51,181 nucleotides of DNA from Rickettsiaceae bacterium (GCA_021323415.1 JAJONM010000002.1:1-51181), one strand, 5' to 3'. Numbered from the stretch's first letter, positions 346-47,672 are shown. Notes: generated from the sequence alone by a model not told the origin. Numbers and translations are program-made.

Positions 346-2118
346 ATGAAAACAAAAGCTTACGATTTAAACAGCATAGACGATGCTGCAACAAAAAAGC
401 AAAGAACGGCAGATGGTTCTGTACCTACAGCTATTACCCAGCCACAGAATCAAGGTAATACATTAGATGCAATCACTTCTTCACAAAATGTCCAGAACGT
501 TGATTTAGATATATTTAGTCCTGATCCAAATGATTTTGCCATTGATGACCTGCTATATAACATAGAACCAGAGTATCAATATTATGAAGAGAGGTTTGCT
601 AGAGCCGTCCTTTATGGCGATGTTGAGACGATTAGATACTTTTTGGAGAAGAATATAAATATCGAATCTTTAGTGCCGGTTTATCAAGGTGATTTAGGGG
701 AAGGCGCCGCACTAATGGTTGCTGCAATGACAGACATTCCCAATAAAATGGAAGTTGTAAAATTGCTACTAGAGTGGAATGCAAATCCTAATGTTGACTT
801 TAAGCATGTATACAATATTAACGGTGTGCATTATGAGCATAACGAACCTTTGCTTAGCCTTTTATACAGAAAAGGTGCTGATCAGGAAATTATAGACCTG
901 ATTATAAGCAATTCTAAGCACGAAATTGTTTATAACGCATCTAAATCTTCCGCTACACCATATGGGCTATATGAAGCAGTCTCTTCAGGTTACTTAGGGC
1001 AAATTATATTCTGCTTTAAAAATGGCGTCGATATTAATGCAAAATTAGGTGAAGAAGCTACCGCACTACATATTGCTGCTAAAGAAGGGCATGCCGATAT
1101 AGCTGCTTTATTGATTGATCTTGGCGCGGATTTGGAGGCAAGAAGTGAAGTTGACGATACCCCGCTGAATTTAGCTGTTGAATATGGGCATGCCGATATA
1201 GCTACTTTGTTGATTAATCGAGGCGCAGATGTGAATGCAAAAGATTGTGTAAACTCTACACCGCTTCATAGCGCTGCTATATGTGGGGATACCAGTATTG
1301 CTGCGTTATTGATTGATCGTGGCGCATGTTTGGAGGAAAAAGGAGGTGATAGATGTTATACCCCACTTCAAACCGCTTTTGAACGTGGGAATACCAGCAT
1401 TGCAGCTTTATTGATTGAGCGTGGCGCAGATGTGAATGCAAAGACTGAAAATGGAGCTAACTTGTTGCATATTGCGGCACTGTCTGGCAAGAAAGATGCT
1501 GTCATTCTAGGTATTAAAAACAGACTAGATGTGAATGCAAAAGATAACGATGAAGAAACTCCAATAATATATTTTATATGTAGAGGTAATTTTGATGCCG
1601 ATGTACTAAAACTATTGCTTGTTGCTGGAGCTGTTGTTACAGAAAATGAGCTGAATGATGCCATAACAGAATTTGCTCCTGAAGATGTAGCAACAATACA
1701 AAGTGTTTTTATGAATGAATTCTTAGTAAAAAATAAAGATCCCGAGTCAGATGAAGTAGTCATTTCATTAAAACCAGAATTTAGAATTAATTATAATGAT
1801 AGATACAATAGGCAATTAGCAAATAGAGCAGGCGATGTGGCTTATAAAATAGTATCGGAAAAAACTACAAGCCCATTTTCACTTCTTCCGAAAGAATTGG
1901 TGCAAGAAATATTCCAGCATCTTTCCGAAAATGATATGGCTGCTTTCTTATCTGTTGCAGAGACTCCAGTTCCGCAAGAGCTCACCATTGAAGCAACAAG
2001 AATGCCATATTTATGCGAAGTTGCGCATTCGCCTGTCCTTGATAAGCTGGATAAAGCCGAAAAAACTTTTACCGCTGCATTAGAAAAAAGCCGCGCGGCT
2101 TGGCTTGAAAGGGCTTAG
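346..2118 (+). CDS. ankyrin-repeat protein with C-terminal F-box-like motif (candidate host-targeted effector)
   Basis: Many TPLHxAAxxG/GADVNAK ankyrin repeats; FSLLPKELVQEIFQHLSENDM fits the F-box consensus LPxExxxxIFxxL; basic N-terminus. Confidence 0.9.
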   Translation: MKTKAYDLNSIDDAATKKQRTADGSVPTAITQPQNQGNTLDAITSSQNVQNVDLDIFSPDPNDFAIDDLLYNIEPEYQYYEERFARAVLYGDVETIRYFLEKNINIESLVPVYQGDLGEGAALMVAAMTDIPNKMEVVKLLLEWNANPNVDFKHVYNINGVHYEHNEPLLSLLYRKGADQEIIDLIISNSKHEIVYNASKSSATPYGLYEAVSSGYLGQIIFCFKNGVDINAKLGEEATALHIAAKEGHADIAALLIDLGADLEARSEVDDTPLNLAVEYGHADIATLLINRGADVNAKDCVNSTPLHSAAICGDTSIAALLIDRGACLEEKGGDRCYTPLQTAFERGNTSIAALLIERGADVNAKTENGANLLHIAALSGKKDAVILGIKNRLDVNAKDNDEETPIIYFICRGNFDADVLKLLLVAGAVVTENELNDAITEFAPEDVATIQSVFMNEFLVKNKDPESDEVVISLKPEFRINYNDRYNRQLANRAGDVAYKIVSEKTTSPFSLLPKELVQEIFQHLSENDMAAFLSVAETPVPQELTIEATRMPYLCEVAHSPVLDKLDKAEKTFTAALEKSRAAWLERA

Positions 2119-2169
2119 ACCTAAGCACAGGAATGGATATTCCCCTTTCATGCCCTTTCGTTTTTCGTC

Positions 2170-2542
2170 ATCCAAACAGGGAAACCCCCGCCTATGGCGG
2201 GGGGACTGGCCCGTTTGACGTATGCGTCAGTAATTTTTACAATAAATAGCCTGTGAAGAAGCCAGTTTATATAATGTTGTTATTATGGGGACGTCATGCT
2301 GCGGCTCGACCGCAGTATCGAGGTAAAAATAAATAAAGCCATTTTGAAAAAATGACATGTTAAATAAGGGCACCTGGATCCTATGGTCTACGCCATAGGA
2401 TGACGTCGCACAACATGAAAACCTATGCTTGTAATTGAGTTAGAGGTGGACAAATACTCAGACCAAATCACATTATTGGGCTAATTTAACCCGCCTTGGG
2501 CGGTTCATATTCAGGCCTCCGGCTTTGCCGGAGGTAATTGAG
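2170..2542 (+). mobile_element. non-autonomous IS200/IS605-type remnant (left-end and right-end hairpins, transposase lost)
   Basis: Left hairpin CCCCCGCC-TAT-GGCGGGGG then ...GTTTGAC; right end AACCGCC-TTG-GGCGGTT plus CCTCCGGC-TTT-GCCGGAGG-TAATTGA, preceded by a TnpA-like C-terminal remnant EVDKYSDQITLLG-stop. Confidence 0.55.
2290..2407. repeat. Rickettsia RPE-4-like (CGTC-tagged) palindromic element
   Basis: GACGTCATGCTGCGGCTCGACCGCAGTATC ... GGATCCTATGGTCTACGCCATAGGATGACGTC: terminal inverted repeat with a hairpin in each arm. Confidence 0.7.
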
Positions 2543-2544
2543 CC

Positions 2545-2608
2545 CCTGGATAGCTCGCTTTTCTTGCTACTCACTTTGTTCGGAGAGAAAATCGACTTCC
2601 AGGATGAC
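2545..2608. repeat. right half of palindromic family A (GTCATCCTGGAA...TTCCAGGATGAC)
   Basis: CCTGGATAGCTCGCTTTTCTT...GAGAAAATCGACTTCCAGGATGAC closely matches 5356-5420. Confidence 0.8.
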
Positions 2609-2656
2609 GCCAGCATTATTTCACTTTTGCACTTCACCCAACCAAGGAGTCCCACC

Positions 2657-4018
2657 ATGGACAACCTAACCAATTTTATTGCCAAAACCTTTGCTACAGT
2701 AGACCCCGGCACTGATTACCTGCCCAACTGGCATATCGATATGATCGCCGATAAACTAGAGCAAGCCGCCGAAGGCAAAATCAAACGGTTGATAATCAAC
2801 GTGCCGCCGCGCAGTTTAAAATCGATTTCGGTAAGTGTTGCATGGTCTGCATGGTTACTGGGTAAAAATCCTTCGGCCAAAATTATGGCGGCAAGTTACA
2901 GCCAGCAGCTTAGCTATAAGCATTCGCTTGATTGCCGTTTGGTGATGGAATCGGATTGGTATAAAGAAATGTGCCCCGATACTATAATTGCCAAAGGCGA
3001 AAACCAGAAAGCAAAATTCGTAACTACCAAGCGGGGATTCCGTTTTGCGACGTCAGTTGGCGGCACAGCAACAGGCGAGGGCGGTGATTTCCTGATTGTC
3101 GATGATCCACTCAATGTCAGTCAGGCCGCCAGCGATATCCTACGCAACAAAGCCAATGACTGGTTCGATCAAACCTTCATGACCCGTCTGAACAATAAAA
3201 AAACCGGCGTGATAGTAGTAGTTATGCAGCGTTTGCATGTTGATGACTTAACCGGCCATTTACTTAAAAAGAAGGGCTGGGAGTTGCTATGTCTGCCTGC
3301 GGTTGCTGAAGAAACCGCAACTTATCCAATCGGAGATAAAACATACACAAGACAGGCAGGCGATTTATTACACCCCGCCCGTGAAGATTGGCCGGAAATG
3401 GAACTGGCTAAGGAAGATTTGGGTTCCTGGGCATTTTCGGCACAATACCAGCAAGCGCCAGTACCACTCGATGGCGGCATGGTAAACCTTAAGTGGTTCC
3501 AGCGCTACAACACTCCGCCGGGGGAGGGGCGCATTGTGCAAAGCTGGGATACGGCCATCAAAGCTGGTGGCAATAACGATTTTAGCGTCTGCACCACATG
3601 GCTGGAAGGTGAAAAAGCATTCTACCTGCTTGATGTAATGGCCTTCAAAGCTGAATACCCTGAGCTGAAACGTAAAACTATCTCAATGGCCCAAAAATGG
3701 GATCCTGACGTAATCCTGATAGAAGACAAAGCCAGCGGCCAATCGCTTATCCAGGATTTACGCCGTGAAAGCAAATTGGTCATTATACCAATCAAATGTA
3801 ACGACAGCAAAACCATGCGCTTTTCCAGAGTAACAACTTACATAGAAGGCGAAAAAGTATACTTACCTGAAAGAAGCGCATGGCTAGCTGATTATGAAGC
3901 TGAAATGATGGCTTTCCCAAATGGCGCTCATGACGACATGGTCGATTCAACCAGCCAGTTCCTTAACTGGATTAGGGCAAAAGAGAATAGACTGAAACCT
4001 AGTATAAAAGTATTTTAA
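2657..4018 (+). CDS. terL: phage/GTA-type terminase large subunit (solitary)
   Basis: LIINVPPRSLKS Walker A region, LIVDDP Walker B, VMQRLH, SWDTA, IEDKASG and HDDMVDS nuclease motifs; start moved to ATG 2657 behind AAGGAG because the upstream frame runs through repeats. Confidence 0.9.
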   Translation: MDNLTNFIAKTFATVDPGTDYLPNWHIDMIADKLEQAAEGKIKRLIINVPPRSLKSISVSVAWSAWLLGKNPSAKIMAASYSQQLSYKHSLDCRLVMESDWYKEMCPDTIIAKGENQKAKFVTTKRGFRFATSVGGTATGEGGDFLIVDDPLNVSQAASDILRNKANDWFDQTFMTRLNNKKTGVIVVVMQRLHVDDLTGHLLKKKGWELLCLPAVAEETATYPIGDKTYTRQAGDLLHPAREDWPEMELAKEDLGSWAFSAQYQQAPVPLDGGMVNLKWFQRYNTPPGEGRIVQSWDTAIKAGGNNDFSVCTTWLEGEKAFYLLDVMAFKAEYPELKRKTISMAQKWDPDVILIEDKASGQSLIQDLRRESKLVIIPIKCNDSKTMRFSRVTTYIEGEKVYLPERSAWLADYEAEMMAFPNGAHDDMVDSTSQFLNWIRAKENRLKPSIKVF

Positions 4019-4167: not shown

Positions 4168-5229
4168 ATGAAAAGAAAAAATGAATTTAATGAAACTGAA
4201 AGAAATGTAAAAGCCAGAACGGATGCGAATAATCCATTAATTCCTGTATTTTTGCCTGGGGCAATGCCAGTAATACCTTTGCATCAGCTAACAGTTGGAG
4301 AGCCAACTCTGCACCAGGCCGCTAAAGCCGGTAATATAACCATGCTGCACAGGCCGATTGCAGAAAAAGGAAATTTAGATGCTCTAGATGCTGAGGGCGG
4401 GACTGCACTCATGTATGCAGCTCGATATGGTCGCACAGATGCTGCTATCTGGCTAATTCAAAGTGGCGCGAAAATAAACGCCGTTGGAAAAAATAATTAT
4501 ACTGCACTACATGTAGCCGCAGGAACTAGTAATGCCGCTACTATGCTTATGCTTATTGGTTTTGGTGCAGATATGAAGGCAAAGACTAATATCGGTTACA
4601 CGCCACTACATGTTGCTGCCCAATATGGCAGAACAGAGACTGCTGCTTTGCTGATTGATAAAGGCGCAAGTGTGGATGCAAAGAATGATCGAGATTCGAC
4701 ACCACTACATATTGCTGCTCAAAATGGCCACACAGGCGTTGCGGAGTTATTAATTAAGAACAGCGCAGATGTTAATGCAAGAGCTAAAGGTGATTTTACG
4801 CCACTACATATTGCTGCTCAAAATGGCCACACAGGCGTTGCGGAGTTATTAATTAAGAACAGCGCAGATGTTAATGCAAAAGATAAAAATGATGTTACGC
4901 CACTGCTTGTTGCTGCTTTCCATGGCAAGACAGAAATCATTACTTTATTACTGAGCAAAGATGCTGATCCTAAAATAAAGGATAAGCGTGGCAAAACAGC
5001 ATATGAATACGCCGCCGAAAAAGGCCATGCAGCAATTCAGGAGTTACTGCTCGATGCAATTGTAAAAAAAGAGTCTGTAACTGTCACACCTGACCAGGAG
5101 CCGCAACCGACTCCGCCTTCACCACCAAGCTTTGCTGAGAGAATAAAGGAAGAAGAAATTTTTGATGCACTTATAGTTGATGAAAAGGGTGAAGGACAGG
5201 AAAAGCCTTCGGATTCTAGGGGTAGGTAA
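4168..5229 (+). CDS. ankyrin-repeat protein (about 8 repeats), candidate effector without F-box
   Basis: Canonical TPLHIAAQNGH repeats; AGGAG RBS; N-terminus MKRKNEFNETERNVKART resembles the 9725/10924 genes; ends SRGR. Confidence 0.9.
   Translation: MKRKNEFNETERNVKARTDANNPLIPVFLPGAMPVIPLHQLTVGEPTLHQAAKAGNITMLHRPIAEKGNLDALDAEGGTALMYAARYGRTDAAIWLIQSGAKINAVGKNNYTALHVAAGTSNAATMLMLIGFGADMKAKTNIGYTPLHVAAQYGRTETAALLIDKGASVDAKNDRDSTPLHIAAQNGHTGVAELLIKNSADVNARAKGDFTPLHIAAQNGHTGVAELLIKNSADVNAKDKNDVTPLLVAAFHGKTEIITLLLSKDADPKIKDKRGKTAYEYAAEKGHAAIQELLLDAIVKKESVTVTPDQEPQPTPPSPPSFAERIKEEEIFDALIVDEKGEGQEKPSDSRGR
4702..4879 (+). repeat. recent tandem duplication of one ankyrin repeat (99-bp period)
   Basis: 4702-4780 and 4801-4879 are identical over 79 nt. 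Confidence 0.9.
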
Positions 5230-5260
5230 GCTGTTGTTATAATTGGCCACAAGTGTTATA

Positions 5261-5577: not shown

Positions 5578-5619
5578 TACCTCAAGACCTCGGCCAATCT
5601 CGATAATTTAAAGACCTGC

Positions 5620-7993: not shown

Positions 7994-9712
7994 ATGAGCA
8001 AAGGATCAAAAGAGCATATTCGTATAGAATCAGAAGATAGTGGTGTATTGGTTACACCGGTGGATTATGAAGCATTGCTTTTAACTAAGCTTTATCATGC
8101 TTGTGCAAAAGCTCAAAATAAAAATGACCTGGAAGGCATTGCGGCCATAATAGAAACCATTAAAGAAAAGAAATATGATATTAATCGTATCATTGAACTA
8201 ACAGAAGATGTCGCTATTTATAAACGTGATGCTAATGGAAAAATAGTTACAGAAAAGGAAGTAGATTCAAACGGTAACGAACAGGATGTACCAGTAGTTC
8301 TAACTACAGAAAAGAGAGCTATTGGTAAAGCGTTGCCATTCTTTGGATTGGCTTATAGCGAAATTGCAGAAAGTAACCTATCTACAAAAGAAATTGTAAA
8401 AATTAGAATAGCTATAGCAGAAAAATTATCATCTATTCCAAATATTGAAGTTAACAAAAGCTTTATAAATGTTTTAAAGTTTGGTGATGGGACAGATGAA
8501 AATCCATATTGGGAGAAAATAGAAGTAACTAACTTCTTAAGTATCCTTGAGAAGCAAAAGCCTTTATGGAGAATCATATCTGAAAAAGCAGCTGACGGAA
8601 TGGATAAAGTTGCAAGCGCCTTAGGTGTTAGCAATGAAAAAATAACACTGGCTTTAGAAAGTAATGATTCTACTACTGATTTGAAAAAGCACTCAGATTT
8701 GGTTAATCGCCAACCAACTCCACCTAACTTAAAAACCAGCAAAAGCAGATTGGGTAGCAGCGGCAGTTTATCATCTTTTTCAAGGTCGCTTTCAAGGTCA
8801 CAATCATTTATGAAAAAGCCTGAATTAAGTATAACTGGTGCGGAAGGTGATAAACTGTCTTCAAGTGTTCCCCAATTAGCTCCGCGTGTACATAGCAGAA
8901 AGCGCAGTATATCTGCTGTTATAAAATATGCTCCGCAAAAACAAGTGGAAAAGAAGCTGGATTTAAACAGCTCTGGCAGCCTGGTGGAAGAAAACAACTC
9001 GCCGTCAATATCCTCATCAAACTCTAATGATGATATGATAAAATCAGCTGACTTTATTACTACATCTAAGTCGATAGATGGTGTTAAGATTGAAGGATCA
9101 ATTCCTACAATGTACCCTGATTCGCAAAGTGATATATCAGATTCATCAGGCTCAGAATCTGATGATATGATAAGATTAGTGGATTTTATTAGTACATACG
9201 TTAATGTGATTAACAGTGCTAAGATTGAAGGGCCAATTTTTAAAATGCGCAATGATTCGCAAAGCGATAAATCAGATTCATCAGGCTCAAAATCTGATGA
9301 TAAGATTGAAAATTCACGCAGGACAAGCTGGCAAAAAGAATTTTTAGTCAAAGCAAGCCATAAAGCACCAAGGCAACTAACCTATAAATTTAGGCAAATT
9401 CCTGATCCATCAGCTCAGGAACCATCTGATGAGAAAGCAAAATTGAGCAAAAGTACATCGCCAGATATCCGCCCACGTTCATCGACATCTGGTGCTGAAA
9501 CCCGCAATTTTGCAGAAAAAGCAAAAACTGTAAGATACAAAGAAAAAAACTTTGCTGAGAAACTTGAGCAAGAATGGAAAGATGAAAAGCCAGCCATAGC
9601 AGCAAAGCCTGAAGAAAAAGAACCAAGTTCTGAAGATAAGAAAAAAGCAAACAGGGTTAAAGCGGAAATTGAAAAGAAGTACAAAGGCTCGCAAGGGATA
9701 TCAAAAAAATAA
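7994..9712 (+). CDS. hypothetical Ser/Lys-rich, largely disordered protein (candidate effector)
   Basis: 572-aa ORF with GAGG RBS; low-complexity Ser-rich centre with an internal duplication; first of three closely spaced genes. Confidence 0.8.
   Translation: MSKGSKEHIRIESEDSGVLVTPVDYEALLLTKLYHACAKAQNKNDLEGIAAIIETIKEKKYDINRIIELTEDVAIYKRDANGKIVTEKEVDSNGNEQDVPVVLTTEKRAIGKALPFFGLAYSEIAESNLSTKEIVKIRIAIAEKLSSIPNIEVNKSFINVLKFGDGTDENPYWEKIEVTNFLSILEKQKPLWRIISEKAADGMDKVASALGVSNEKITLALESNDSTTDLKKHSDLVNRQPTPPNLKTSKSRLGSSGSLSSFSRSLSRSQSFMKKPELSITGAEGDKLSSSVPQLAPRVHSRKRSISAVIKYAPQKQVEKKLDLNSSGSLVEENNSPSISSSNSNDDMIKSADFITTSKSIDGVKIEGSIPTMYPDSQSDISDSSGSESDDMIRLVDFISTYVNVINSAKIEGPIFKMRNDSQSDKSDSSGSKSDDKIENSRRTSWQKEFLVKASHKAPRQLTYKFRQIPDPSAQEPSDEKAKLSKSTSPDIRPRSSTSGAETRNFAEKAKTVRYKEKNFAEKLEQEWKDEKPAIAAKPEEKEPSSEDKKKANRVKAEIEKKYKGSQGISKK
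9026..9306 (+). repeat. imperfect intragenic tandem duplication (about 135-140 bp unit)
   Basis: DDMI...DFI.T...KIEG.I..M..DSQSD.SDSSGS.SDD occurs twice; GATTCGCAAAG.GATA.ATCAGATTCATCAGGCTCA is shared at DNA level. Confidence 0.8.
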
Positions 9713-9724: not shown

Positions 9725-10921
9725 ATGAAAAGAATAGCTGAAGATAATGAACATGGAAGAAATGTAAGGCCGAGAACTGATGCAGGACAGGATAATTTTA
9801 TTTTAATGGACTATTCGAGTAATATATCCATACACGAGGCTGCAAAATCGGGCGATATAGCAGCTTTAGCGTTATTAACCCAAAATACAAAAAATATTGA
9901 TGCTCGTGATGCTTTTGGCTCTACTGTCCTGTATCAAGCTATTTGTGCTGGACGTACTAATGCTGCGATCTTCATGATTTCTAAAGGCGCGAATATTTAT
10001 TCGCTGGATGATTTTAATAGATCTGCCCTACATATTGCGGCTCAAAGTGGTAACGTAGAATTAACTGAATTTTTGTTAAGTCGCGGAGCTGATGTTAATG
10101 CAAAAGACGACTCTGGACAAACTACCTTAAGTTTGCTTGCTCATGAAGGGAGTGAAAATGATGGAGATTTTGCTGCTTTGCAAAAATTGTTAATAAAACA
10201 CAAAGCATACATAAATGTAATAGACTATGATGGTCTAGCCCCACTTCATATTACTGCCTTTGGTAGAATAGGAAGCGCAAGGCGTTTTATCGAAAATGGC
10301 GCCAATGTAAATTTACAAGATGACTCGGGTGACACATCAATAGACATCTACTTAAAAGTACGTCATGATCAGGATATATCCGAGTTTATTAAATTATTAC
10401 TTTGTGCTGGTGCTACTTACTCAAAAAAGCAGATAAAGTTTTATAGAGATAATACCTCCGGAAGTGCCGCGGCATTTAGTGTATTTGATTATGCAAAAAC
10501 TACTCTGACTTATCAACCAATACCACTTATTCCTTTATTAATGTTAAGCCCTGAATTTGTAGTTAGCTATTCTGCAGAGCTAAGAAAGGAAATAGAAGGC
10601 AAAGGAAGTAAAGCATTGTCGAAAATCCTTGAACGGACTGGATTACCTTATCTTCCAGCGGAATTGATAGGAAAAGAATTATTTAAATATCTTTCTATCG
10701 AAGATGTCGGCGTTGCTTTTTCCCTTTCCAGCCAGCATGACCAGCAAACCCGCCCATTAGATCAAGGTGAGCAAAGGGTAGTTCCATACTCACTTGATGT
10801 TGCAGAAAGGAATACCAGAGAAACCTACCCAGCTAAACTTGATGAGAAGATAAAATTATTTACTGCGGATATTGAGAAGAGAAGGGCTGAGGCTGATAAA
10901 GTGGCAAACAAGGGGAGATAA
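9725..10921 (+). CDS. ankyrin-repeat / F-box-like protein (candidate effector)
   Basis: Ankyrin repeats; LPYLPAELIGKELFKYLSIEDV F-box-like motif; N- and C-terminal blocks shared with 10924. Confidence 0.9.
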   Translation: MKRIAEDNEHGRNVRPRTDAGQDNFILMDYSSNISIHEAAKSGDIAALALLTQNTKNIDARDAFGSTVLYQAICAGRTNAAIFMISKGANIYSLDDFNRSALHIAAQSGNVELTEFLLSRGADVNAKDDSGQTTLSLLAHEGSENDGDFAALQKLLIKHKAYINVIDYDGLAPLHITAFGRIGSARRFIENGANVNLQDDSGDTSIDIYLKVRHDQDISEFIKLLLCAGATYSKKQIKFYRDNTSGSAAAFSVFDYAKTTLTYQPIPLIPLLMLSPEFVVSYSAELRKEIEGKGSKALSKILERTGLPYLPAELIGKELFKYLSIEDVGVAFSLSSQHDQQTRPLDQGEQRVVPYSLDVAERNTRETYPAKLDEKIKLFTADIEKRRAEADKVANKGR

Positions 10922-10923: not shown

Positions 10924-12555
10924 ATGAAAAGAATAGCTGAAGATAATGAACGTGGGAGAAATGTAAGGCCGAGAACTGATGAAGTGCCTCCGCTTGTTAA
11001 TCCAGCACCTATTATTAGTGCTCCACAACCTTTAGCCCCTCGGCAGCCAATAGTCAAAGCGCTACACATGGCGGCGATGGAAGGTAATATGGTGCAGTTG
11101 CGCCTGCTAGCAGAGCGCACTCAGGATATTGACGTGCGTGATAATGACGGAATGACTGCTTTATATTATGCGGTAGCGTATAACAACATTGATGCCACTC
11201 GATTTCTGCTTGAAAAGGGAGCAAAAAAAGAAGAAGTTGATAAATATGGCTCTAATGCACTGCATGTAGCTGCTTTAAATAATAGTTGTTATGTGGCTTC
11301 TATGCTTATTGATCTTGGTGTGGATGTAAATGTTAGAGATTCTGAAAATCGCACACCTATGCATGATGCTGCGACAGAAGAAGGTAGCTTACAAGTGCTT
11401 AAATTGCTATGTGCAAAAGGTGCTGATATAAATGCAAAAGACAATCACCGCGAGACACCGCTGGATTCTGCTGCCGAAAATGGCTACACTGAGATAGTTG
11501 AATTTCTGGTTAGTAAGGGAGCAAATATAAATGAAGAAAGATACTATAATGCCATTCCGTTAGATCGTGCAATAATAAATCTTCATAAAGAAACTGCTAA
11601 ATTTCTACTTAGTAAAGGCGCAATTATGACTGATGCTATATTTGCTGCTGTTGATGATTATAGTGATGCGAAAGAAACTTTGACTTTCTTACAAGATATC
11701 GGATGTGACATAAACAAAAAAATTTACGGTCATAGTGGAATTAGCCTCTTAAATTGTGCTTTGGGCAATGATAATCTTAATGATGATCAGTTTGAGGGAC
11801 TATTAAGATTATTTATAAGCCACAAAGCGCATATAAATTCTAAAAATGAAATGGGCAGTACCCCACTGCATCGAGCTGCACACGAACCCCAAGCAACAAA
11901 ATTTGTTATTGAAAATGGTGGTAATGTTAATTCTAGGAATGAGGATGGGAAGACTCTATTAGGACGGATATTAGATTATAATGGGGAAGTACATTATAAT
12001 GGAAACGCTTTAAAACTCACTACATTGTTACTTTGCGCTGGCGCTACCTTCACTTGGGAAGAGGTTAATGATGCACTTAAACATAAACAATCCGATAATG
12101 ACATAGAAGCGATAGTTGGTATCTTTAGAAATTCAAAAGTTATTAATCTATCTTTAGATAAACGCCAATTAGCAAATGAGTTTGTATCAAGCTATCCTGA
12201 GGAGCTTTTTAGTGAATTTGTAGATAAAGCAAGTGATACGGCATGGCAGATGATACAGCGTAATAGTAATAAATACGGCCCAAATGTATTTTTTAATTTG
12301 CCGAAGGAAATGATTAAAGAAATATTAGTAAGGCTTCCTGTTGCCGATATTTGCTCGTTCCTCACCCTTTCCAGCCAGCATGACCAGCAAACCCGCCAAT
12401 TAGCCGAGGGTGAGCAAAGGATAGTTCCATACTCACTTGATGTGGCAGAAAGAAGAACCAGGGAAACTTACCCAGCTAAACTCGACGCTAAAGTAAAATT
12501 ATTTACTGAAGATATTGAGAGAAGAAGAGATGGGGCTGAAGGCAGGGGAAGGTAA
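10924..12555 (+). CDS. ankyrin-repeat / F-box-like protein (candidate effector)
   Basis: Ankyrin repeats; FFNLPKEMIKEILVRLPVADI F-box-like motif; ends GRGR. Confidence 0.9.
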   Translation: MKRIAEDNERGRNVRPRTDEVPPLVNPAPIISAPQPLAPRQPIVKALHMAAMEGNMVQLRLLAERTQDIDVRDNDGMTALYYAVAYNNIDATRFLLEKGAKKEEVDKYGSNALHVAALNNSCYVASMLIDLGVDVNVRDSENRTPMHDAATEEGSLQVLKLLCAKGADINAKDNHRETPLDSAAENGYTEIVEFLVSKGANINEERYYNAIPLDRAIINLHKETAKFLLSKGAIMTDAIFAAVDDYSDAKETLTFLQDIGCDINKKIYGHSGISLLNCALGNDNLNDDQFEGLLRLFISHKAHINSKNEMGSTPLHRAAHEPQATKFVIENGGNVNSRNEDGKTLLGRILDYNGEVHYNGNALKLTTLLLCAGATFTWEEVNDALKHKQSDNDIEAIVGIFRNSKVINLSLDKRQLANEFVSSYPEELFSEFVDKASDTAWQMIQRNSNKYGPNVFFNLPKEMIKEILVRLPVADICSFLTLSSQHDQQTRQLAEGEQRIVPYSLDVAERRTRETYPAKLDAKVKLFTEDIERRRDGAEGRGR

Positions 12556-19644: not shown

Positions 19645-21093
19645 ATGAAAAATCACCAGACGCGCTCGGTTTTAGATACCGCTCAATCTACAACTACTGT
19701 AACAATCCCTAATACGGCAGGACGTAGTGTTGTAGAGTGCTTGCCTCCTAACCCTACTGCAGCTGGAAGCTCTTTACTCGTATTGCTATGCGGTGGCACT
19801 AGTGATGGTAGTAGTTTTATACCATTATGTCCTGCATTTGCTAATGGAGGAATAATTTCAGTATTTCCTAACCCACATACTAATTCGAGCAAAACATGGA
19901 ATGCGGGTGATTGTTGTGAGCCAGCCAGTGCGCAAAATATTGATGATGTTGGTTTTGTTTCAAAAATAATTGATTATTATTTAGCAACATATCCAAACAT
20001 TAACCCTAATAAGATTTTTGTCAGTGGTTTATCAAATGGGGGTATGCTGGCATTTCGCGTGGCGCGTAATGATTCTCGTATAGCGGGAGTGCTGACGTCT
20101 TCTACAACTGATTCTTCAATGTCTGAAACTAATCCTGGTCGTAAAATCCACTTCCTTATGTATCATGGTGTGAATGATACTAATATTCCAACAAATGGCG
20201 GTACTGGTGGATTGCTTACGTATGTAAAGCCATCGCAGCAGGCTGTGCTGACCAAATGGTCTGCTAGTAACGAATGCACTAGTAACACAACTACTTCTTT
20301 CCCGAGATATAGTGAAACTTTGTTTAACTGCCCTAATTCTACTGATATGAAATATGAATTAGTAAATGGTGTAGGGCATCAGTGGCAAATGATGCCAGCG
20401 TTTAATACTACTAGTGAATTGGTAAATTTTGTTCAGAATCATCAGCGTGTAGGTACGCTCGCAACACCTGGCGTAGCGCCATCTCCTGTGCCAGCACCTG
20501 TTAAAGTAACGCCTTCTCCATCGAAAAAGACCCCGCCAATTCCTGCAATTAGCTCAGAAGGGGCGGTAATTTCATCAAATCCAATAACAGATTTGGCTGT
20601 TGCAGCTAAAATTGGCATTTCGGCTTTGCCCGGGGTGTATGAATCTGTAAAAACTACGTTGCAGGATCCTGCTGTTGTTTCGGCTGCAACACAATCTTTT
20701 GTAGGTGGTACTGCTTCTGGTGTGGTATTGGAGTTGACTAATAATGTAACTGCGGCTCAGTTTGCAGGGGCTGTGCCTATGGCTATATCTACAGGTTCTT
20801 TTTGGCCATTTTTAGTGCCTGCTGCTACTAAAATTATGGATTATGCCGGATGCTCCCGTGAAACAAAAGAGCTTGTAGCTGATACGATGCAGTATGCCTC
20901 AAATGCAATGCTTACAGCTTTTGAACACAAGGCTCCTGAAATCATGTTGGCTTCATTAGCTGCAACGTATGTCGGAAAACAGGTGGGATCGGGAGTTTTA
21001 AAATCTGGAAAATGGGCTGCGCAAGAGATTGAAAAGAGGGTAGTCGGTGTGGCATCAGTAGATGTTGATTTATCGAAAGGTTTTTCAATGTAG
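19645..21093 (+). CDS. LpqC/PHB-depolymerase-like alpha/beta esterase with Pro-rich linker and hydrophobic C-terminal extension
   Basis: WNAGDCC, DDVGF, GLSNGG nucleophile elbow, HGVND, GHQW; PSPVPAPVKVTPSP linker. Confidence 0.8.
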   Translation: MKNHQTRSVLDTAQSTTTVTIPNTAGRSVVECLPPNPTAAGSSLLVLLCGGTSDGSSFIPLCPAFANGGIISVFPNPHTNSSKTWNAGDCCEPASAQNIDDVGFVSKIIDYYLATYPNINPNKIFVSGLSNGGMLAFRVARNDSRIAGVLTSSTTDSSMSETNPGRKIHFLMYHGVNDTNIPTNGGTGGLLTYVKPSQQAVLTKWSASNECTSNTTTSFPRYSETLFNCPNSTDMKYELVNGVGHQWQMMPAFNTTSELVNFVQNHQRVGTLATPGVAPSPVPAPVKVTPSPSKKTPPIPAISSEGAVISSNPITDLAVAAKIGISALPGVYESVKTTLQDPAVVSAATQSFVGGTASGVVLELTNNVTAAQFAGAVPMAISTGSFWPFLVPAATKIMDYAGCSRETKELVADTMQYASNAMLTAFEHKAPEIMLASLAATYVGKQVGSGVLKSGKWAAQEIEKRVVGVASVDVDLSKGFSM

Positions 21094-25738: not shown

Positions 25739-26044
25739 ATGTCTAACGAAAAAAAACATAAATTTGGAATTTCTGCACTTGATCAGGCCGGAATTAATAG
25801 CTACGAAAAGTATGTACTTTATTCACGTAACTCGAAAGCAGAAACAAAAAGTACAGTGGCATCAGATAATTTTGGTGGATGTGAAAGCCGTAATTTTGAT
25901 CCTAGCCCAACTGGGTATTTTAATAAGAAATTATCTAACAAAGTAATTGAGCTATGGCCTTATAATGGTGAGGAGAAAAATTCTGATTATGTTAAAGATA
26001 CAGAAAAAGTAGATGACTCTTCTGTTAGCTCTAAAGGTAGATAA
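25739..26044 (+). CDS. small hypothetical protein ending SSKGR (candidate effector)
   Basis: 101-aa ORF in its own intergenic space; no family recognised. Confidence 0.6.
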   Translation: MSNEKKHKFGISALDQAGINSYEKYVLYSRNSKAETKSTVASDNFGGCESRNFDPSPTGYFNKKLSNKVIELWPYNGEEKNSDYVKDTEKVDDSSVSSKGR

Positions 26045-28451: not shown

Positions 28452-29693
28452 TTATACTGACTTACCATTATTATTTTGTCCGCGATTTGTTGGTTTCCTA
28501 GGGCTTTCATCGTTTTCTTCGTGGCTGGTTTCATGGGCTGAAGAAGATGTCCTTGATGCTGTTACCCTATCAGCGAAACTAGTTGTATCTCCTGTATTGG
28601 AGCGCTTCCTGGTATGTGTAACTTCCCTTTCTTTACCTTTATCATCTTTAGATGAGGAAGTAAGGTGTTCCTTTTCAGGCTCGCTACCATAACCATCTAT
28701 TTTATCTCTTGTTGAGCTGTTCGATAAGCGCTCCTCTGATTCGCTTTCTCCAGAGGAGAGTCTTATTGTTGGTGATGATTGAGAAGAGCTAAAAGATTCA
28801 TGGTTACGATGTAATGATGGACTTTTATCTGTAAATATTTTTTTTATAAGTCCAAAAAATCCAGATTTTGATTTGCTTGATGATATTGAATCAGATCTGC
28901 TAGGACTTATATTTGGTGAAGAGTAAGCGCTTGATACCGAATCGGATTTCTTGCGGTTAATATCAGGTGTTGATGGTGCGCTGTTGCTGCTAGAAGGCGT
29001 AAAATCAGGCAATGGTTTACGCTCTGTTTTGGGTGACGATGTTATTCTACCTGAGTCTGTAAATTTTGCAGAAGATGGAACAATTTCTTTAACAGAATTT
29101 TTAAGTAAATCCATTTCTTCTTTTTGTATTTCCTCTTTTAGGAAATCTTTAAATTTATCAGGTGATACATTATTTCTAATTTGTATTTTTGGTGATTGGT
29201 GCATTGCTAATATTTGATCATTAACGTTAATTGATGGTATATCATCCTCATCCACACTCCAGCTTTCCCATATATCATCTTTATCTAAAGATTCATCGGG
29301 GGAGAAAACATCTTTTTCAGGTGCTCTTTCATCTAGTATATCTATAATCGTTGGGTTTGCCATACCTTGGATTTCAAAAAGATGTGCATTGTCTACCACA
29401 TACTTTATTGATTCTTTCAGTATAGATTCATTGCTTTTTAAAAACGCTTTTACATTTGTTGCTGTTTCATCAAAATGATCCAGCACTGATGGCCGCGGCG
29501 ATGTTGCTTTAGTTTTTTCGTGCATTACAAAGTTGTTTGCAATTATTTCTATATATGAATCCTTATCTAATTCATGTTTGTCTTTTGGATTCAAACTGTG
29601 CATATACTCGATATCAAAGTAGTGAGTTACAATATCTGCAACAACGTCAAAAATTTTATTTAATGATGCGTCATCTAATTTATTTCTTGCCAT
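28452..29693 (-). CDS. hypothetical Ser-rich, disordered protein (candidate effector)
   Basis: ATG 29693 (MARNKL) behind GCAGGA; low-complexity Ser/Pro/Arg C-terminal half. Confidence 0.75.
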   Translation of the reverse strand: MARNKLDDASLNKIFDVVADIVTHYFDIEYMHSLNPKDKHELDKDSYIEIIANNFVMHEKTKATSPRPSVLDHFDETATNVKAFLKSNESILKESIKYVVDNAHLFEIQGMANPTIIDILDERAPEKDVFSPDESLDKDDIWESWSVDEDDIPSINVNDQILAMHQSPKIQIRNNVSPDKFKDFLKEEIQKEEMDLLKNSVKEIVPSSAKFTDSGRITSSPKTERKPLPDFTPSSSNSAPSTPDINRKKSDSVSSAYSSPNISPSRSDSISSSKSKSGFFGLIKKIFTDKSPSLHRNHESFSSSQSSPTIRLSSGESESEERLSNSSTRDKIDGYGSEPEKEHLTSSSKDDKGKEREVTHTRKRSNTGDTTSFADRVTASRTSSSAHETSHEENDESPRKPTNRGQNNNGKSV

Positions 29694-29793
29694 CGTTTTT
29701 CCTGCTATTATCTTAATAACAAATTGACAAATACGTGCTTTATACCTATCGCTTATTAGCAATTTTCTACAAACCTATTGTAACAGTATTGTA

Positions 29794-38346: not shown

Positions 38347-38410
38347 GCTTTCTGCCTATCACAGGGTGCGCTGGATGGATTCTAGAGGCTTGTTATTTTA
38401 TAAAAGAACT

Positions 38411-43268: not shown

Positions 43269-44099
43269 GCCAGAAAGCCTCTCTTTCCAATCTGGCATTG
43301 TTATATTCAACAGCATTTTAGCTTTATCGCAATTAAGCCTAGAGTTTAAAGGTCTTTTTGCTGCGGCTTTATATTCTGATGAAGAAATTGGAGATACTTT
43401 ATCTACAATTAGCGGAATATTTTGTGCGCGGGCAAGTTCAAAAATTTCTTGTGCGTAATTATACCAGCTAGTTTCCCCAGCATTACACAGGTGGTAAACG
43501 CCAGATTCGAATGGTTTTTCTAATGCTTTGAGCGTGGCATCAGCAATATCACCTGCATAGGTTGGAGCGCCAATTTGGTCGCTAACAATTGAAAGTTCTT
43601 CGCGCTCTTTGCCGAATCTCAGCATTGTAGTTAAGAAATTTTTGTGTGTTTCGTTGTAAACCCATGATGTACGGAGTATTATATATTTACCACCTATTGC
43701 CTCAATAGCCTGTTCACCAGCTAATTTGGTTTTTCCGTAAATATTTATTGGTGCCGGAGTGTCGGTTTCTTTGTAAGGGGTGTTTCCCTCACCTGGAAAT
43801 ACATAGTCGGTAGAATAATGTATAAATGGTATGTCCATTATTTTACAGTATTTTGCCAGTGATTCTGGAATTGTTACATTAGCTTTGTAAGCGGCCTCTG
43901 TATCGGTTTCGGCTTTATCAACATTAGTATAAGCAGTAGCGTTGATAATTGCGCTTGGGTTTATGTCTTCTAAAACTTTTTCTATATTTTCATAAACAGA
44001 AAAATCTGCATCGGTACTAGCTATAATGGTTGCATTTTTAGCGCGGGAGGCAAGGGCGGAGCCGACTTGGCCGTATTTGCCATATATAAGCAAACTCAC
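43254..44099 (-). CDS. rfbD: dTDP-4-dehydrorhamnose reductase
   Basis: [27 protein letters not shown]; GTG start overlapping the rfbA stop (GTGA). Confidence 0.95.
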
Positions 44100-44989
44100 G
44101 CTGCTACCCATAATTTTTCTTTATCGACTCCCGATACATCCCTTAGGTATTGCCCGTAGTCATTATTTCCATATTCAGCGGCAAGGAATAATAGCTGCTC
44201 TTTATTGATAAAACCCTGGTGATAGGCGATTTCTTCTATGCAGCCAATTTTTAAGCCCTGACGTTCTTCTACCATTTGCACAAAGTTTGATGCCTGTAGA
44301 AGCGATTGCGGTGTTCCGGTATCTAACCAGGCGATACCTCGGCTTAAAAACTCTACCTTGAGCTGGCCTTTCTTTAAATATACGTTGTTTAGGTCGGTGA
44401 TTTCTAGTTCACCCCTAGCGGATGGCTTTAATGCTTTTGCAAATTCTACTACCTGGGAATCATAAAAATATAGCCCGGTAACGGCATAATTTGATTTTGG
44501 TTGTTTTGGCTTTTCTTCGATGCTGATAGCGTTTTTATTGTCGTCAAAATCAACTACACCATAGCGCGAAGGATCTTTCACATGATAGCCAAATACACAT
44601 CCTCCGCGGGTTAATCCGGCCGAATTGCTTAATATCTCTGGTAGGCCGCGACCATAAAAAATATTATCGCCAAGCACAAGACATACTGGAGAATCACCTA
44701 TAAACTCCTGACCAATTATAAAAGCCTGGGCTATACCTTCCGGTTTTGCTTGTTCTTTGTAGGTAATTGATAAGCCAATCTGGCTGCCATCTTTTAGCAA
44801 CCTTTCGATAGAGGGTAAATCCCGCGGGGTGCTTATTATAAGAATGTCTTTAATTCCGGCATGCATTAGGGTTGATAATGGGTAATATATCATCGGCTTA
44901 TCGTATAGGGGTATTACCTGCTTGCTGATTGCCCGTGTTATTGGTGCTAAGCGTGTGCCTGAGCCGCCAGCTAATATTATGCCTTTCAT
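44096..44989 (-). CDS. rfbA: glucose-1-phosphate thymidylyltransferase
   Basis: [38 protein letters not shown]; ATGA overlap with rfbB. Confidence 0.97.
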
Positions 44990-46008
44990 CTTGCTATCCT
45001 TATTTTGTCGTCTGTAATTAGCTCTTCCAAATACCACTGGACTGTAGTTTTTAGCCCTTCATCAAAAGTATATTGTCTTGTAAAGTCTAACTCTTTTACT
45101 GCCTTTCTATCATCTATCGCATAGCGTCTATCATGACCTGCGCGATCTTTAACAAAGGTAATTTGTGATTTGTATGAGCAGTTGGTTTTAGGAGACAACT
45201 CATCTAAAATTTCGCACAAACTGTTTACCAAATCAATATTGGATTTTTCTGCGTTACCGCCAAAGCAATATGATTCGCCTAATTTTCCTTTAGTTAGGGC
45301 CAGATATACGCCATTGCAATGGTCTTCAACATGAATCCAGTCGCGCACATTTTTACCATCTCCATAAACCGGCAAAAGTCTTCCATCCAAAGCGCATGAA
45401 ATCATATGTGGTATTAGTTTTTCTGGATATTGGCGAGGGCCGTAATTGTTGCTACAATTGGTGATAATTACCGGTAAGCCATAAGTCCTGTGCCATGCAT
45501 GGGCTAAATGGTCTGCAGCTGCTTTACTGGCAGAATATGGCGAGCTTGGCGCATATGGTGTGGTTTCAATAAATTTTGTATCTGAATTAAGTTCCAAGTC
45601 GCCAAACACCTCATCAGTTGAGATTTGTACATAACGGAAGTTATTTTTCTTAGCCTCTGGCAGGCTGTTCCAATAATTACGGGTAGCTTCCAGCATTGTA
45701 TATGTTCCGGTAATATTAGTTTCTATAAAAACCGCTGAGGCGTTTATTGAATTGTCCACATGGGACTCTGCAGCAAAATTGACTACTGCCTCAATATTAT
45801 GCTCGCGTAAGATTTTATCTACCAGTTGCCTATCGCAAATATTACCTTGAATTAGTTTGCATGGAATGTTTTTCAGATTGTCTATATTGCCTGCGTAGGT
45901 AAGGGCGTCCAAAACAATGATATTATCTCCGCGTTTGGCACTTTGGGCAACAAATGTGCTGCCGATAAAACCTGCTCCGCCTGTAACTAAAATGTTCATA
46001 TTTACCAT
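44986..46008 (-). CDS. rfbB: dTDP-glucose 4,6-dehydratase
   Basis: [35 protein letters not shown]. Confidence 0.97.
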
Positions 46009-46166: not shown

Positions 46167-46195
46167 TTGACAAATAATAAAAAATATGTTACATA
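46167..46195 (+). promoter_or_regulatory. putative sigma70 promoter of the 46230 ankyrin gene
   Basis: TTGACA-N17-TACATA. Confidence 0.5.
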
Positions 46196-46229
46196 AGCCT
46201 CTCATAAAAATGACAAGTGGAGATATAAA

Positions 46230-47018
46230 GTGTCTAGATATATGTCAAAATTGCATCTTGAGCAGCGTTTAATCGATTTTGCAAAAAATGGAAATATTGT
46301 TGAAATACAAAGACTTATGAATAATGGGATTAACCCTGCAGCAAATAATAATATGGCGTTATGGTGGGCTGCCAGCAAAGGACGGCTGGATATATTAGAA
46401 CTTTTGCTTACTGATTGGAGAGTTAGCCCGGCAGCGCGTATGAATGTAGCGATCGCTATTGCTTCTGAAAATGGCCATACCGAAGTTGTTAAATTTTTAC
46501 TTGCTGATGTACGCGTAAATCCTGCAGAAAATGGCAATATTGCAGTTCATTCTGCAGCTAGAAATGGCCATTTTGATGTGGTTGAGATGCTTATTTCTGA
46601 TAAGCGTGTCGATCCATCAGATGCTAATAACACTGCAATCCGCAGGGCTTCTGCTAACGGGCATATTAATACTGCCCAATTACTTTTGGCTTATGGGGCA
46701 AATATCGGTCATAGAAAATTTGATGAGATGTACCAGGCTGCATACACTGGTTTTATTGGTGCTGTTAGCCAGGGAGCGCGTGAATACCTATCAAATAAAG
46801 AAAAAGTACGCACAATAGCTAATAACCATGCTGAGATAATTAAAAATAGAAGCTTGGCAGCTTGTGCATCTGTGATAAGAGCAGCTCACAATAGGAAGCA
46901 GAACCAAAATAATGTTACCCCACTAAACAATGTAGTGAAGCATAACTTTACGAATGATTGGTCTGTTCTTGGTAGTGTTATTGTTGCAAAAAATGCTGAT
47001 ATGCATGTAGTGGCTTAA
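46230..47018 (+). CDS. ankyrin-repeat protein with DxRVxP-type repeats
   Basis: Repeats NxAIxxASxNGHxEVVxxLLxDxRV(S/N/D)P; GGAG RBS before GTG. Confidence 0.88.
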   Translation: MSRYMSKLHLEQRLIDFAKNGNIVEIQRLMNNGINPAANNNMALWWAASKGRLDILELLLTDWRVSPAARMNVAIAIASENGHTEVVKFLLADVRVNPAENGNIAVHSAARNGHFDVVEMLISDKRVDPSDANNTAIRRASANGHINTAQLLLAYGANIGHRKFDEMYQAAYTGFIGAVSQGAREYLSNKEKVRTIANNHAEIIKNRSLAACASVIRAAHNRKQNQNNVTPLNNVVKHNFTNDWSVLGSVIVAKNADMHVVA

Positions 47019-47227
47019 TACCAAAACCGCCTGGCTATTAAAACTGTTAATATTGTTGGTATATTCTTTACTGCCAGTAATATGGTTTGAGAAGCCAGAA
47101 TGTTAGCACCTACATGCAGTTTTCCCCACATAGATACATATTGTCCGTAGACCCAAATAGTGTAGCATAGCCATATAAAAGCAGCAGCGAGCAATAATAT
47201 AAGTAGCAATTTCTTGACTGTTGTCAT
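47015..47227 (-). CDS. small hypothetical membrane protein
   Basis: 70 aa, two hydrophobic segments, fills the gap between flanking genes. Confidence 0.5.
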   Translation of the reverse strand: MTTVKKLLLILLLAAAFIWLCYTIWVYGQYVSMWGKLHVGANILASQTILLAVKNIPTILTVLIARRFWY

Positions 47228-47291
47228 GATAGCATGATAAGTAGCGCGAAAAATATTTTAAGTCAATATTTACTTCGAAAAGGAAATTGTT

Positions 47292-47672
47292 ATGTCGAAT
47301 GAAAAGAAACGCCCTCTTCTTAAAAGATCTGAGTCGCGGATTACTCTTTCGGTGATGCCTTTGTCTTTTGATATGGGAAAGGAGGTGGATAACCATAAGC
47401 CTGAAAATAATTTATTCGAACCGAAAGCTAAGCCATTTGCTAAAAAAGAGTTTGTGCCTGGTTTTGGTAAACTAAAAAGAACTGTAAGTGAAATAAACTT
47501 GTTTCCAAATTCGGATATAAAAACTGAAAATAAACCTGAATCTATTGCTCAAAGGAAAAAGAAAGTACTGCCTGAAGAAGTTTTACAGAGGCTAAAAGAA
47601 AAATCTGAACGTGATTGGCAGAAACAGCTTGAGGCGGATTCTGAGGCTTTCTTGAACCAATGTCTTAAGTAG
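47292..47672 (+). CDS. hypothetical Lys/Glu-rich protein (candidate effector)
   Basis: AAGGA RBS; basic clusters KKRPLLKR and RKKK. Confidence 0.7.
   Translation: MSNEKKRPLLKRSESRITLSVMPLSFDMGKEVDNHKPENNLFEPKAKPFAKKEFVPGFGKLKRTVSEINLFPNSDIKTENKPESIAQRKKKVLPEEVLQRLKEKSERDWQKQLEADSEAFLNQCLK

Follow-up and report, generated by a model that had tools for sequence, protein, structure and literature searches.

In a 51,181-nucleotide stretch of DNA from a Rickettsiaceae bacterium (GCA_021323415.1 JAJONM010000002.1:1-51181; hereafter the window, by which we mean this whole stretch, i.e. contig C84 of a 2.06-Mb, 140-contig genome labeled G000), we identify a new lineage-specific family of ankyrin-repeat proteins with a conserved C-terminal module, and propose, with weak confidence, that the terminal helix of this module is a candidate export tag shared with other proteins of the genome. 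A preliminary description of the window had reported a C-terminal motif, an aromatic-small-x-x-aliphatic-E-K/R helix 15-45 amino acids (aa) from the end, on nine unrelated orphan proteins, and had read it as a translocation signal that could predict the whole effector set. The explanation we favor combines a module inherited by ankyrin paralogs with a tail helix that recurs beyond them as a candidate export element, and we assign it a probability of about 40%. Its parts differ in standing: the clearest instances of the motif are very probably the terminal helix of a lineage-specific module on an expanded ankyrin family, i.e. a matter of paralogy and a common module; that proteins outside the module family share the helix as a functional element is, in our view, an even bet; and that its function is export is a tentative proposal falling short of likely.

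The ankyrin paralogs and their C-terminal module

All nine peptide strings are present in the open reading frames (ORFs) for which they had been reported, and four of these do end in GR-stop (ORF 4168, SRGR; ORF 9725, NKGR; ORF 10924, GRGR; ORF 25739, SKGR). Pfam searches recover ankyrin repeats in ORFs 346, 4168, 9725 and 10924 (E 1e-21 to 1e-62) and no family in ORFs 7994, 25739, 28452 and 47292. In BLASTP comparisons of the last 120 aa against the proteins of the genome, ORFs 346, 9725 and 10924 were linked with each other and with C33_1276 and C33_4212 from contig C33 at E 5e-34 to 4.7e-5 (9725/C33_1276, E 5e-34; 9725/10924, E 3.6e-31; 346/C33_4212, E 2.7e-12), and weakly with C16_554. The tail of ORF 4168 was similar only to that of its paralog C58_22768, and ORFs 7994, 19645, 25739, 28452 and 47292 gave nothing better than E 0.15. 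The description of the carriers as unrelated thus fails for four of the nine instances, because the tails of 346, 9725 and 10924 are homologous and 4168 has the same ankyrin repeats and N-terminal leader.

The homologous tails form a module of ~135 aa. In it, a short F-box-like core of two helices, LPxE(L/I)xxEIFxxLSxxD(I/V)xxxxxLS, precedes a variable linker and the string PYSL.VA; the final helix reads K(S/L)F(T/A/V)xx(L/I)E. Among the 1906 proteins of the genome, a profile of the module finds six full members (ORFs 346, 9725 and 10924, C33_1276, C33_4212 and C16_554), a partial one, C95_2052 (E 2e-7), and a diverged one, C137_5787 (E 0.033). A nine-sequence alignment that includes C137_5787 and two relatives from outside the genome retains only three invariant columns, L60, D64 and F116, the last of which is the Phe of the motif. 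In an AlphaFold2 model of the module, the motif lies in a terminal helix (residues 106-133; predicted local distance difference test score, pLDDT, about 75-83). Of the 23 ankyrin proteins, 9 have F[TAV]..[LIVM][EK] in their last 55 aa, compared with 26 of the 1883 other proteins.

At the other end, five ankyrin proteins (ORFs 4168, 9725 and 10924, C33_1276, and C24_16338 from residue 15) display a common leader, MKR..E.NE.GRNV.(A/P)RTD. The leader contains two basic clusters ~10 residues apart, an arrangement resembling a candidate bipartite nuclear-localization signal. ORF 4168 and its paralog C58_22768 are members of the same ankyrin family in which the module has been lost while F-[AT]-E-x-[IL] persists in a short polar tail. 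The ankyrin-family features of the window, all on the plus strand, are:

346..2118 (+), ankyrin-repeat protein with C-terminal module, 590 aa; Pfam Ank families at E 1e-39; tail homologous to 9725, 10924, C33_4212 and C33_1276
1711..2115 (+), C-terminal module of ORF 346, made up of an F-box-like core, LPKELVQEIFQHLSENDMAAFLSV, and the terminal helix; alignments; F-box 16.2 bits (cut-off 20.5), F-box-like 15.6 bits
2068..2082 (+), FTAAL core (within TFTAALEKSR), 16 aa from the end of ORF 346; Phe invariant in the nine-sequence alignment
4168..5229 (+), ankyrin-repeat protein, 353 aa, with leader, short polar tail and SRGR end; Pfam Ank_2, E 1.3e-62
4168..4224 (+), N-terminal leader of ORF 4168, MKRKNEFNETERNVKARTD; regular-expression match common to five ankyrin proteins of the genome
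5131..5145 (+), FAERI core, 32 aa from the end of ORF 4168; held-out matrix score 4.6, the second-highest
9725..10921 (+), ankyrin-repeat protein, 398 aa, NKGR end; leader 9725-9781, module 10514-10918, FTADI 10859-10873
10924..12555 (+), tandem paralog of 9725, 543 aa, GRGR end; leader 10924-10980, module 12148-12552, FTEDI 12502-12516

A profile search of 1.84 billion representative proteins returned eight matches at E <= 0.001, five of them at E <= 1e-30. These five comprise the two C33 proteins, two that we take, by length and matched range, to be 9725 and 346, and P0005, a protein of 609 aa absent from this assembly, whose N-terminus reads MKRKGDDNDINGGKAKKIKIED. The weaker match P0008 (324 aa, E 5.5e-4) retains KSFSDAIE 17 aa from its end, so that both P0005 and P0008 preserve KSF..[IL]E/G, at 17-21 aa from the C-terminus. 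The remaining two matches are repetitive proteins with no relation to the module. A search of 40 related genomes, 11 of the same family and 29 of the same order, did not recover the module. Judged by these searches, it is lineage-specific, with almost no relatives among the 1.84 billion representatives.

An F-box-like segment in the module

The LPxE..EIFxxLSxxD core lies 70-90 aa from the C-terminus in six proteins. On this segment the Pfam F-box model scores 18.0 bits in ORF 10924 (profile positions 1-28 of 43), 16.2 and 12.1 bits in two others, i.e. in three of six members and always below the cut-off of 20.5; the matches cover profile positions 1-27 to 1-31 of 43. The F-box-like model gives 15.6 bits against a cut-off of 24.3 in one member, and PRANC is not listed for module members at E <= 1. 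As the matches cover only the start of the profile, the third helix would be missing from the F-box-like core. The structural model has low overall confidence (mean pLDDT 69.8; predicted template-modeling score, pTM, 0.40), with helices at 49-59 and 62-75 followed by disorder; a Foldseek search of the PDB with this model of pTM 0.40 gave no match at E <= 0.001, a VIA-align search with the same model went no higher than Z 5.1, the 50 matches listed including no F-box entry, and the best PDB sequence-profile match of the module was at E 0.22. At the level of sequence architecture, ankyrin repeats at the N-terminus and a short F-box-like segment near the C-terminus can be recognized, and by analogy the module is a candidate mimic of host ubiquitin-ligase adaptors.

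A short core in polar tails across the genome

Beyond the ankyrin family, we examined the 1906 genes called genome-wide with a simple codon-score ORF caller (coverage 85.8% of the genome); the C-termini of called genes depend on stop codons alone. We define a polar tail as a final 50 aa of which at least 66% are DEKRSTNQPGH, with some tests at >=0.60; the thresholds are our choice, and results at 0.60, 0.66 and 0.70 were all recorded. The core motif, [FW]-small-x-x-[LIVM], was tested as [FW][ATVSG]..[LIVM], and its enriched zone lies 12-26 aa from the C-terminus.

Of 311 polar tails, 50 have this core; shuffled tails give 25.1±5.0, and among internal polar segments the figure is 195 of 2225 (p 9e-5). 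A narrower form, [FW][ATVSG].R[LIVM], is found in 10 of 311 polar tails and 10 of 2225 internal polar segments (p 4e-5). Around Phe/Trp in polar tails, Arg is preferred at +3 (48, 29.5 expected) and Ile at +4 (37, 24.7 expected); this preference is not seen in internal polar segments. In polar tails, patterns with i,i+3 spacing, with Arg moved to another position or in reversed order show no enrichment. When the window and its tail paralogs are removed and each tail cluster is reduced to a single member, the count is 43 of 286 compared with 23.4±4.3 shuffled. Within the 12-26 aa zone, at a polar fraction of at least 0.60, 55 of 789 tails carry the core versus 30.5±5.3 in shuffles (z 4.6); this is 7.0% of tails, whereas the corresponding sub-window of internal segments gives 4.1% (p 3.7e-4). 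Among all proteins there is also a narrow peak at 14-17 residues before the C-terminus (58 versus about 7 per position), which we do not count because it is partly due to terminal membrane helices. Only the 5-residue core, in polar tails and at a set distance from the C-terminus, is commoner than expected by chance, and the excess is moderate.

Returning to the window, the distances from the aromatic residue to the C-terminus are 16 (346), 32 (4168), 53 (7994), 20 (9725), 17 (10924), 26 (19645), 18 (25739), 41 (28452, minus strand) and 18 (47292) residues, so that the reported range of 15-45 aa holds for eight ORFs and not for 7994. Six strings conform to aromatic-small-x-x-aliphatic, and WAAQE (19645), YVKDT (25739) and WQKQL (47292) do not. 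Five instances (346, 4168, 9725, 10924 and 28452) fit the enriched core and lie in or near its zone, and that of 28452 also matches [FW][ATVSG].R[LIVM]. ORF 7994 fits the core by sequence, yet its membership in the motif set is doubtful because the motif lies outside the enriched zone. In line with the caution in the preliminary description that its weaker matches may be chance, we judge 19645 and 25739 to be chance and lean the same way for 47292. The instances outside the ankyrin family are:

7994..9712 (+), orphan, 572 aa, no Pfam family; FAEKL at 9551-9565, 53 aa from the end; no protein with a similar tail
21013..21027 (+), WAAQE in ORF 19645-21093; off the core pattern; tail 50% polar; weak hydrolase matches only; judged chance
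25988..26002 (+), YVKDT in the 101-aa ORF 25739-26044; off the core pattern; the ORF ends SKGR; judged chance
28452..29762 (-), orphan, 436 aa, no Pfam family; FADRV at 28563-28577, 41 aa from the end; tail 88% polar
47616..47630 (+), WQKQL in the 126-aa ORF 47292-47672; Gln at the 'small' position; 18 aa from the end; leaning chance

The proteins that carry the core

Outside the window, the core stands 12-26 aa from the end of a polar tail in 53 proteins, and 50 of these were scanned with Pfam (of the three left out, two are known members of the ankyrin module family). The scanned carriers comprise 21 with no Pfam family, 11 with ANK, Sel1, TPR or pentapeptide repeats and 18 ordinary enzymes or envelope proteins, and among 40 random polar-tail proteins without the motif there are 13 with no family and one with TPR. 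The expectation that the motif is concentrated in orphan and repeat proteins is thus upheld for the core (32 of 50 carriers versus 14 of 40 controls; hand-worked chi-square about 7.5, p < 0.01). So is the reported lack of Sec signals: judged by an N-terminal hydrophobic run, a crude proxy rather than a signal-peptide predictor, one of 42 orphan or repeat carriers of our selection is positive, in comparison with 376 of 1737 proteins overall. In their last 25 aa these 42 carriers average 5.1 basic residues and a net charge of +1.14 (all proteins, 3.64 and +0.47), and ten of them end in Arg.

The core-type element, often reading [FW]-small-[DENS]-R-[LIV], occurs in a Sel1-repeat family, a seven-member orphan family and about 20 singletons including ORF 28452 of the window. 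The orphan family (C137:4385-5617, C69:4979-6415, C69:6598-8844, C112:32115-33305, C112:33302-34672, C112:34693-35916 and C88:4525-5790, the three C112 copies being in tandem) combines a conserved N-terminal ~300 aa with unalignable polar tails, in which five of seven members keep the core somewhere and four of seven within 12-26 aa. Neither Pfam nor a search of 11 same-family genomes gave a match to this family; C137_4385 and ORF 28452 were likewise without a match in these 11 genomes, and a homolog search with C137_4385 among proteins of 225-718 aa recovered only itself. A fold model of the family is poor (mean pLDDT 50.1), with a best Z of 6.7 to a WhiA chain. Several ordinary enzymes have a core-bearing polar tail appended, such as the class-III aminotransferase at C121:25094-26701, whose domain ends at residue 423 of 535; the others, at C118:5480-6199, C102:1931-3289 and C105:10134-11183, are a GNAT protein, a radical-SAM protein and an HMGL-like protein ending EKRGR. 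If the tag is real, these tailed enzymes would be candidate exported enzymes.

Secretion systems of the genome

The possibility, raised in the preliminary description, that the genome lacks a suitable secretion system falls away because both a type IV secretion system (T4SS) and a type I secretion system (T1SS) are encoded. Contig C87 has virB8-virB9-virB10-virB11 and virD4 (VirD4, 500 bits), C72 has virB3, virB4 and three tandem oversized VirB6 paralogs (1270, 813 and 1018 aa), and C58 has a second virB4, the split layout described for the Rickettsiales vir homolog (rvh) system. A T1SS operon at C70:22786-26423 encodes a PrtD-type ABC exporter (669 bits against TIGR01842, cut-off 510), an HlyD-type protein (380 bits summed against TIGR01843) and an OEP protein in a row. 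A search of the genome for homologs of the known rvh effector patatin gave 0 matches; one for Sec7 also gave 0 matches, but as it picked up nothing in any control genome its null carries no weight. In passages of PMC11077975, which names the Rickettsiales vir homolog system, the tails of Rickettsia RalF and RARP-2 bind RvhD4, and rvh effectors are defined there by RvhD4 binding, not by a motif.

A secretion tag on effector-like tails is possible, and the mechanism that we envisage is as follows. The carriers would be host-directed, effector-type proteins without Sec signals, in which the terminal amphipathic helix and the basic residues after it are the selected part of the tail; the helix would act as the recognition element that hands the protein to an export machine reading C-terminal signals, for which we would favor the rvh-type T4SS, via its VirD4 coupling protein, over the T1SS. 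Export by the T4SS specifically is rather unlikely when taken as a claim of its own, and export by the T1SS considerably less likely still. In its most far-reaching form, which we regard as improbable, this proposal would have some 35-45 substrates of the symbiont's rvh-type T4SS marked by a genus-specific tag of two parts: an amphipathic turn, [FW]-small-polar-(R)-[LIV], at 12-26 aa before the C-terminus and, after it, a basic end that is often G-R. Duplication and tail exchange would then have carried the tag into ankyrin, Sel1/TPR, orphan and even enzyme genes.

Weighing a possible shared tag against other explanations

Several results weigh against a widely shared tag, and most of them are also what would be expected if only the ankyrin family module were real, with the other matches in the window (7994, 19645, 25739, 28452 and 47292) and genome being amphipathic pentamers that occur in polar tails by coincidence and whose count a few multigene families raise, an explanation that we consider quite possible though short of probable. 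Collapsing all full-length homology clusters to one random member, a procedure that counts all ankyrin proteins as one, lowers the excess from z 4.6 to z 2.2 (35.7 versus 24.6±5.1); much of the signal therefore sits in the ankyrin, Sel1 and orphan families, of which 8 of 21, 3 of 6 and 4 of 7 members, respectively, have the core. A scoring matrix evaluated with whole families held out separates tail from internal instances weakly (area under the curve, AUC, 0.557, p 0.017), and with one member per family the AUC is 0.53 (median p 0.15); the matrix partly captures the general basic richness of C-termini and performs similarly (AUC 0.563, p 0.029) in G005, a relative from the same family sampled over 1.24 Mb, ~half of its genome (1225 genes, 545 polar tails). 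With a cross-family AUC of 0.53-0.56, the idea of predicting the full effector set from the motif is not supported.

The motif as it had been formulated fares no better. Its E-K/R part is not enriched: [FWY][AGST]..[LIVM]E[KR] has 11 tail and 26 body matches in 1906 proteins, and of the 11, three lie in the window, two of them in tandem paralogs; a loose pattern covering all nine strings occurs 1.18 times per 1000 residues in tails and 1.04 in bodies. The originally reported core, taken a priori, without the window and 15-45 aa from the end, is found in 18.9% of all tails versus 19.3% of internal segments (p 0.67) and, at a polar fraction of at least 0.60, in 15.8% versus 14.9% (p 0.27), reaching p 0.036 only at >=0.66 (15.6% versus 11.7%); relative to shuffles its z is 1.1, 3.3 and 3.8 for these three sets. 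Unbiased scans miss the motif: among 45,504 exact gapped triplets only Lys-rich ones are Bonferroni-significant in tails, and among 4352 residue-class patterns basic-rich ones lead, the aromatic-small-x-x-aliphatic class (with Tyr, without Val) standing at index 2888, counted from 0 (17.1% of tails versus 18.3%). Three of the nine window instances are, as noted, off even the core. The refined core patterns were picked after inspection of the data, and our own simple gene caller underlies the whole gene set.

In G005 the core is present in 22 of 545 polar tails versus 20.7±4.5 shuffled (z 0.3), with a flat position profile. This null has two sides: it shows that the excess in G000 is not an artifact of the method, and, given that VirD4 is encoded in 12 of 12 genomes of the family including G005, it counts against a signal read by a conserved machine. 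Apart from this, a polar-middle variant (12-26 aa, >=0.66 polar) displays a faint trend in G005 (6 of 219 versus 17 of 1627, p 0.046), and look-alike tails there read ...WGDRI..., ...WADDVQQGRGRQLG and ...FADKVEAETRGRGGK. GR-stop ends are over-represented in G000 (17 of 1906 proteins, 5.4-8.7 expected) and likewise in G005 (10 of 1225, 3.4-5.8 expected). They go with the motif (7 of 90 with it versus 5 of 699 without, p 1e-4), a link that is thin outside the window and its paralogs (3 of 81 versus 4 of 683, p 0.03). We rejected GR-stop as an independent signal, G005 having the same excess, and keep it as a weak companion of the motif. A DNA repeat or inserted element behind the motif was also rejected: among 77 tails codons vary, and the substantial matches (37-109 bp) are known paralog pairs; there are ten further matches of 14-25 bp, one of which (25 bp, E 1.6e-4) joins proteins without known relation.

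What paralogy and chance do not readily accommodate is the position of the element: outside the window and its tail paralogs, the counts per 10-aa bin from the end are 2, 18, 7, 10 and 9, i.e. a peak at 11-20 aa, in a pipeline that returns no excess in G005. To this may be added the core kept in the otherwise unalignable tails of the orphan-family paralogs, and the skew of the carriers toward orphan and repeat proteins without N-terminal hydrophobic runs. A different reading, which we hold to be unlikely, makes the helix host-directed or structural. It would complete or regulate the F-box-like module, for instance by packing on a truncated F-box, or bind a host SCF (Skp1-Cullin-F-box) component or other host protein, related helices elsewhere being a host-binding short linear motif and export proceeding through other tail features. 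In its favor, the motif Phe is one of the three invariant columns of the module and co-varies with the F-box-like core, the sub-threshold F-box matches cover only profile positions 1-28 to 1-31 of 43, and passages of PMC4148323 report that Skp1 and Cullin-1 are bound by Orientia Anks whose C-terminus has a short F-box-like (PRANC) domain. However, ORF 4168, C58_22768 and the Sel1 and orphan families carry the core without F-box-like sequence, the fold-search matches listed include no F-box protein, and a fixed distance from the C-terminus is unexpected for an internal binding motif.

By analogy with known T1SS substrates, the last ~60 aa including the helix might instead be read by the PrtD-type ABC exporter, which we consider a long shot. 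The tails are Lys/Arg-rich, with the net charge of +1.14 given above, and such tails are more typical of VirB/D4 than of T1SS substrates. The complete operon on C70 speaks for this route, as do passages of PMC4315096, in which 19 of 20 Orientia Anks were secreted as HlyA chimeras via their last 60 aa by E. coli HlyBD. The rule given there, that T1SS tails are rich in LDAVTSIF residues (37-63% in Orientia Anks) and poor in KHPMWC, is compatible with the carriers, whose last 60 aa have an LDAVTSIF fraction of 0.49; yet this and their KHPMWC fraction of 0.17 are no different from those of all proteins (0.52 and 0.18).

The preferred combination of an ankyrin paralog module and a more widely shared, export-related helix is of interest since effector sets of rvh-type T4SSs are hard to define, the organisms being mostly uncultivable or genetically intractable. 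We know of no sequence signal for this type of system. A position-fixed tail element, if real, could be probed directly by mutating two residues of a 40-aa tail, and the two-part tag, if true, would be the first sequence-defined signal of a Rickettsiales-type T4SS, making the effector set readable from sequence. Even without an export tag, the window reveals an ankyrin family that is specific to this lineage and whose tail module is F-box-like, and illustrates how an apparent shared motif on orphans can owe much to paralogy.

Other features of the window and genome

Between two ankyrin genes of the window lies a TTG-start ORF (2525-4018, +) with only the C-terminal RNaseH-like domain of the phage terminase large subunit (E 2.9e-19), which is probably a prophage or gene-transfer-agent remnant. 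Elsewhere in the window we observed a Fic-domain protein amid housekeeping genes (23106-24473, -; E 1.1e-15), a polyhydroxybutyrate depolymerase (31545-33251, +; E 5.9e-93) ending in long AKKPAAKK repeats that are histone H1-like (HC2, E 6.6e-11), and a 1348-aa ORF with no Pfam family (38339-42385, +) in the region of the strongest GC skew of the window (0.25-0.30).

The commonest C-terminal dipeptide of the genome is Ala-Ala, with varying codons (65 of 1906 proteins, 13.7-16.7 expected; in G005, 47 of 1225, 6.5-11.1 expected). Such ends occur on ribosomal and other housekeeping proteins and, in the window, on the products of 21151-22422 (-), ...ARLAA, and 44096-45037 (-), ...LWVAA. The tag encoded by the permuted transfer-messenger RNA of the genome ends, as read by eye, in ...AIAAAA, and the native Ala-Ala ends therefore resemble the ssrA degron, which is reportedly potent in E. 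coli.

Comparison with known systems

The closest parallel is with the Ank-PRANC proteins of Orientia tsutsugamushi: both have N-terminal ankyrin repeats and a short F-box-like sequence near the C-terminus, and in both cases the family is multicopy with low pairwise identity in a bacterium having a T1SS and a T4SS. In Orientia, secretion competence resides in the last ~60 aa, as reported in the passages of PMC4315096 cited above. The architecture also parallels that of poxvirus Ank-PRANC proteins, whose F-box-like motif is, per passages of PMC4148323, likewise short and C-terminal. The window module, a candidate member of this class, differs in having no Pfam PRANC match and an F-box score below the cut-off, and in the ~60 further residues with a conserved terminal helix that follow its core; in addition, five members of the ankyrin family of this genome have a common N-terminal leader.

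Legionella pneumophila AnkB likewise joins an F-box to ankyrin repeats in a bacterial mimic. It is a Dot/Icm effector, exported by a type IVB system, and its F-box is N-terminal and canonical, whereas the likeness in the window module is sub-threshold and C-terminal. HlyA-type T1SS signals are uncleaved, occupy the last 50-60 aa and include an amphipathic helix; the tails described here differ from them in being Lys/Arg-rich and in having LDAVTSIF and KHPMWC fractions no different from the genome average. With VirB/VirD4 substrates, such as Agrobacterium VirE2 and VirF, whose Arg-rich tails are C-terminal signals, the carriers share unstructured, hydrophilic, net-positive tails, the lack of a Sec signal and a VirD4 in the genome. 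To our knowledge, the known VirB/VirD4 signals are compositional, with no fixed aromatic-aliphatic pair at a set distance, and it is just such a pair that would distinguish the candidate in this lineage.

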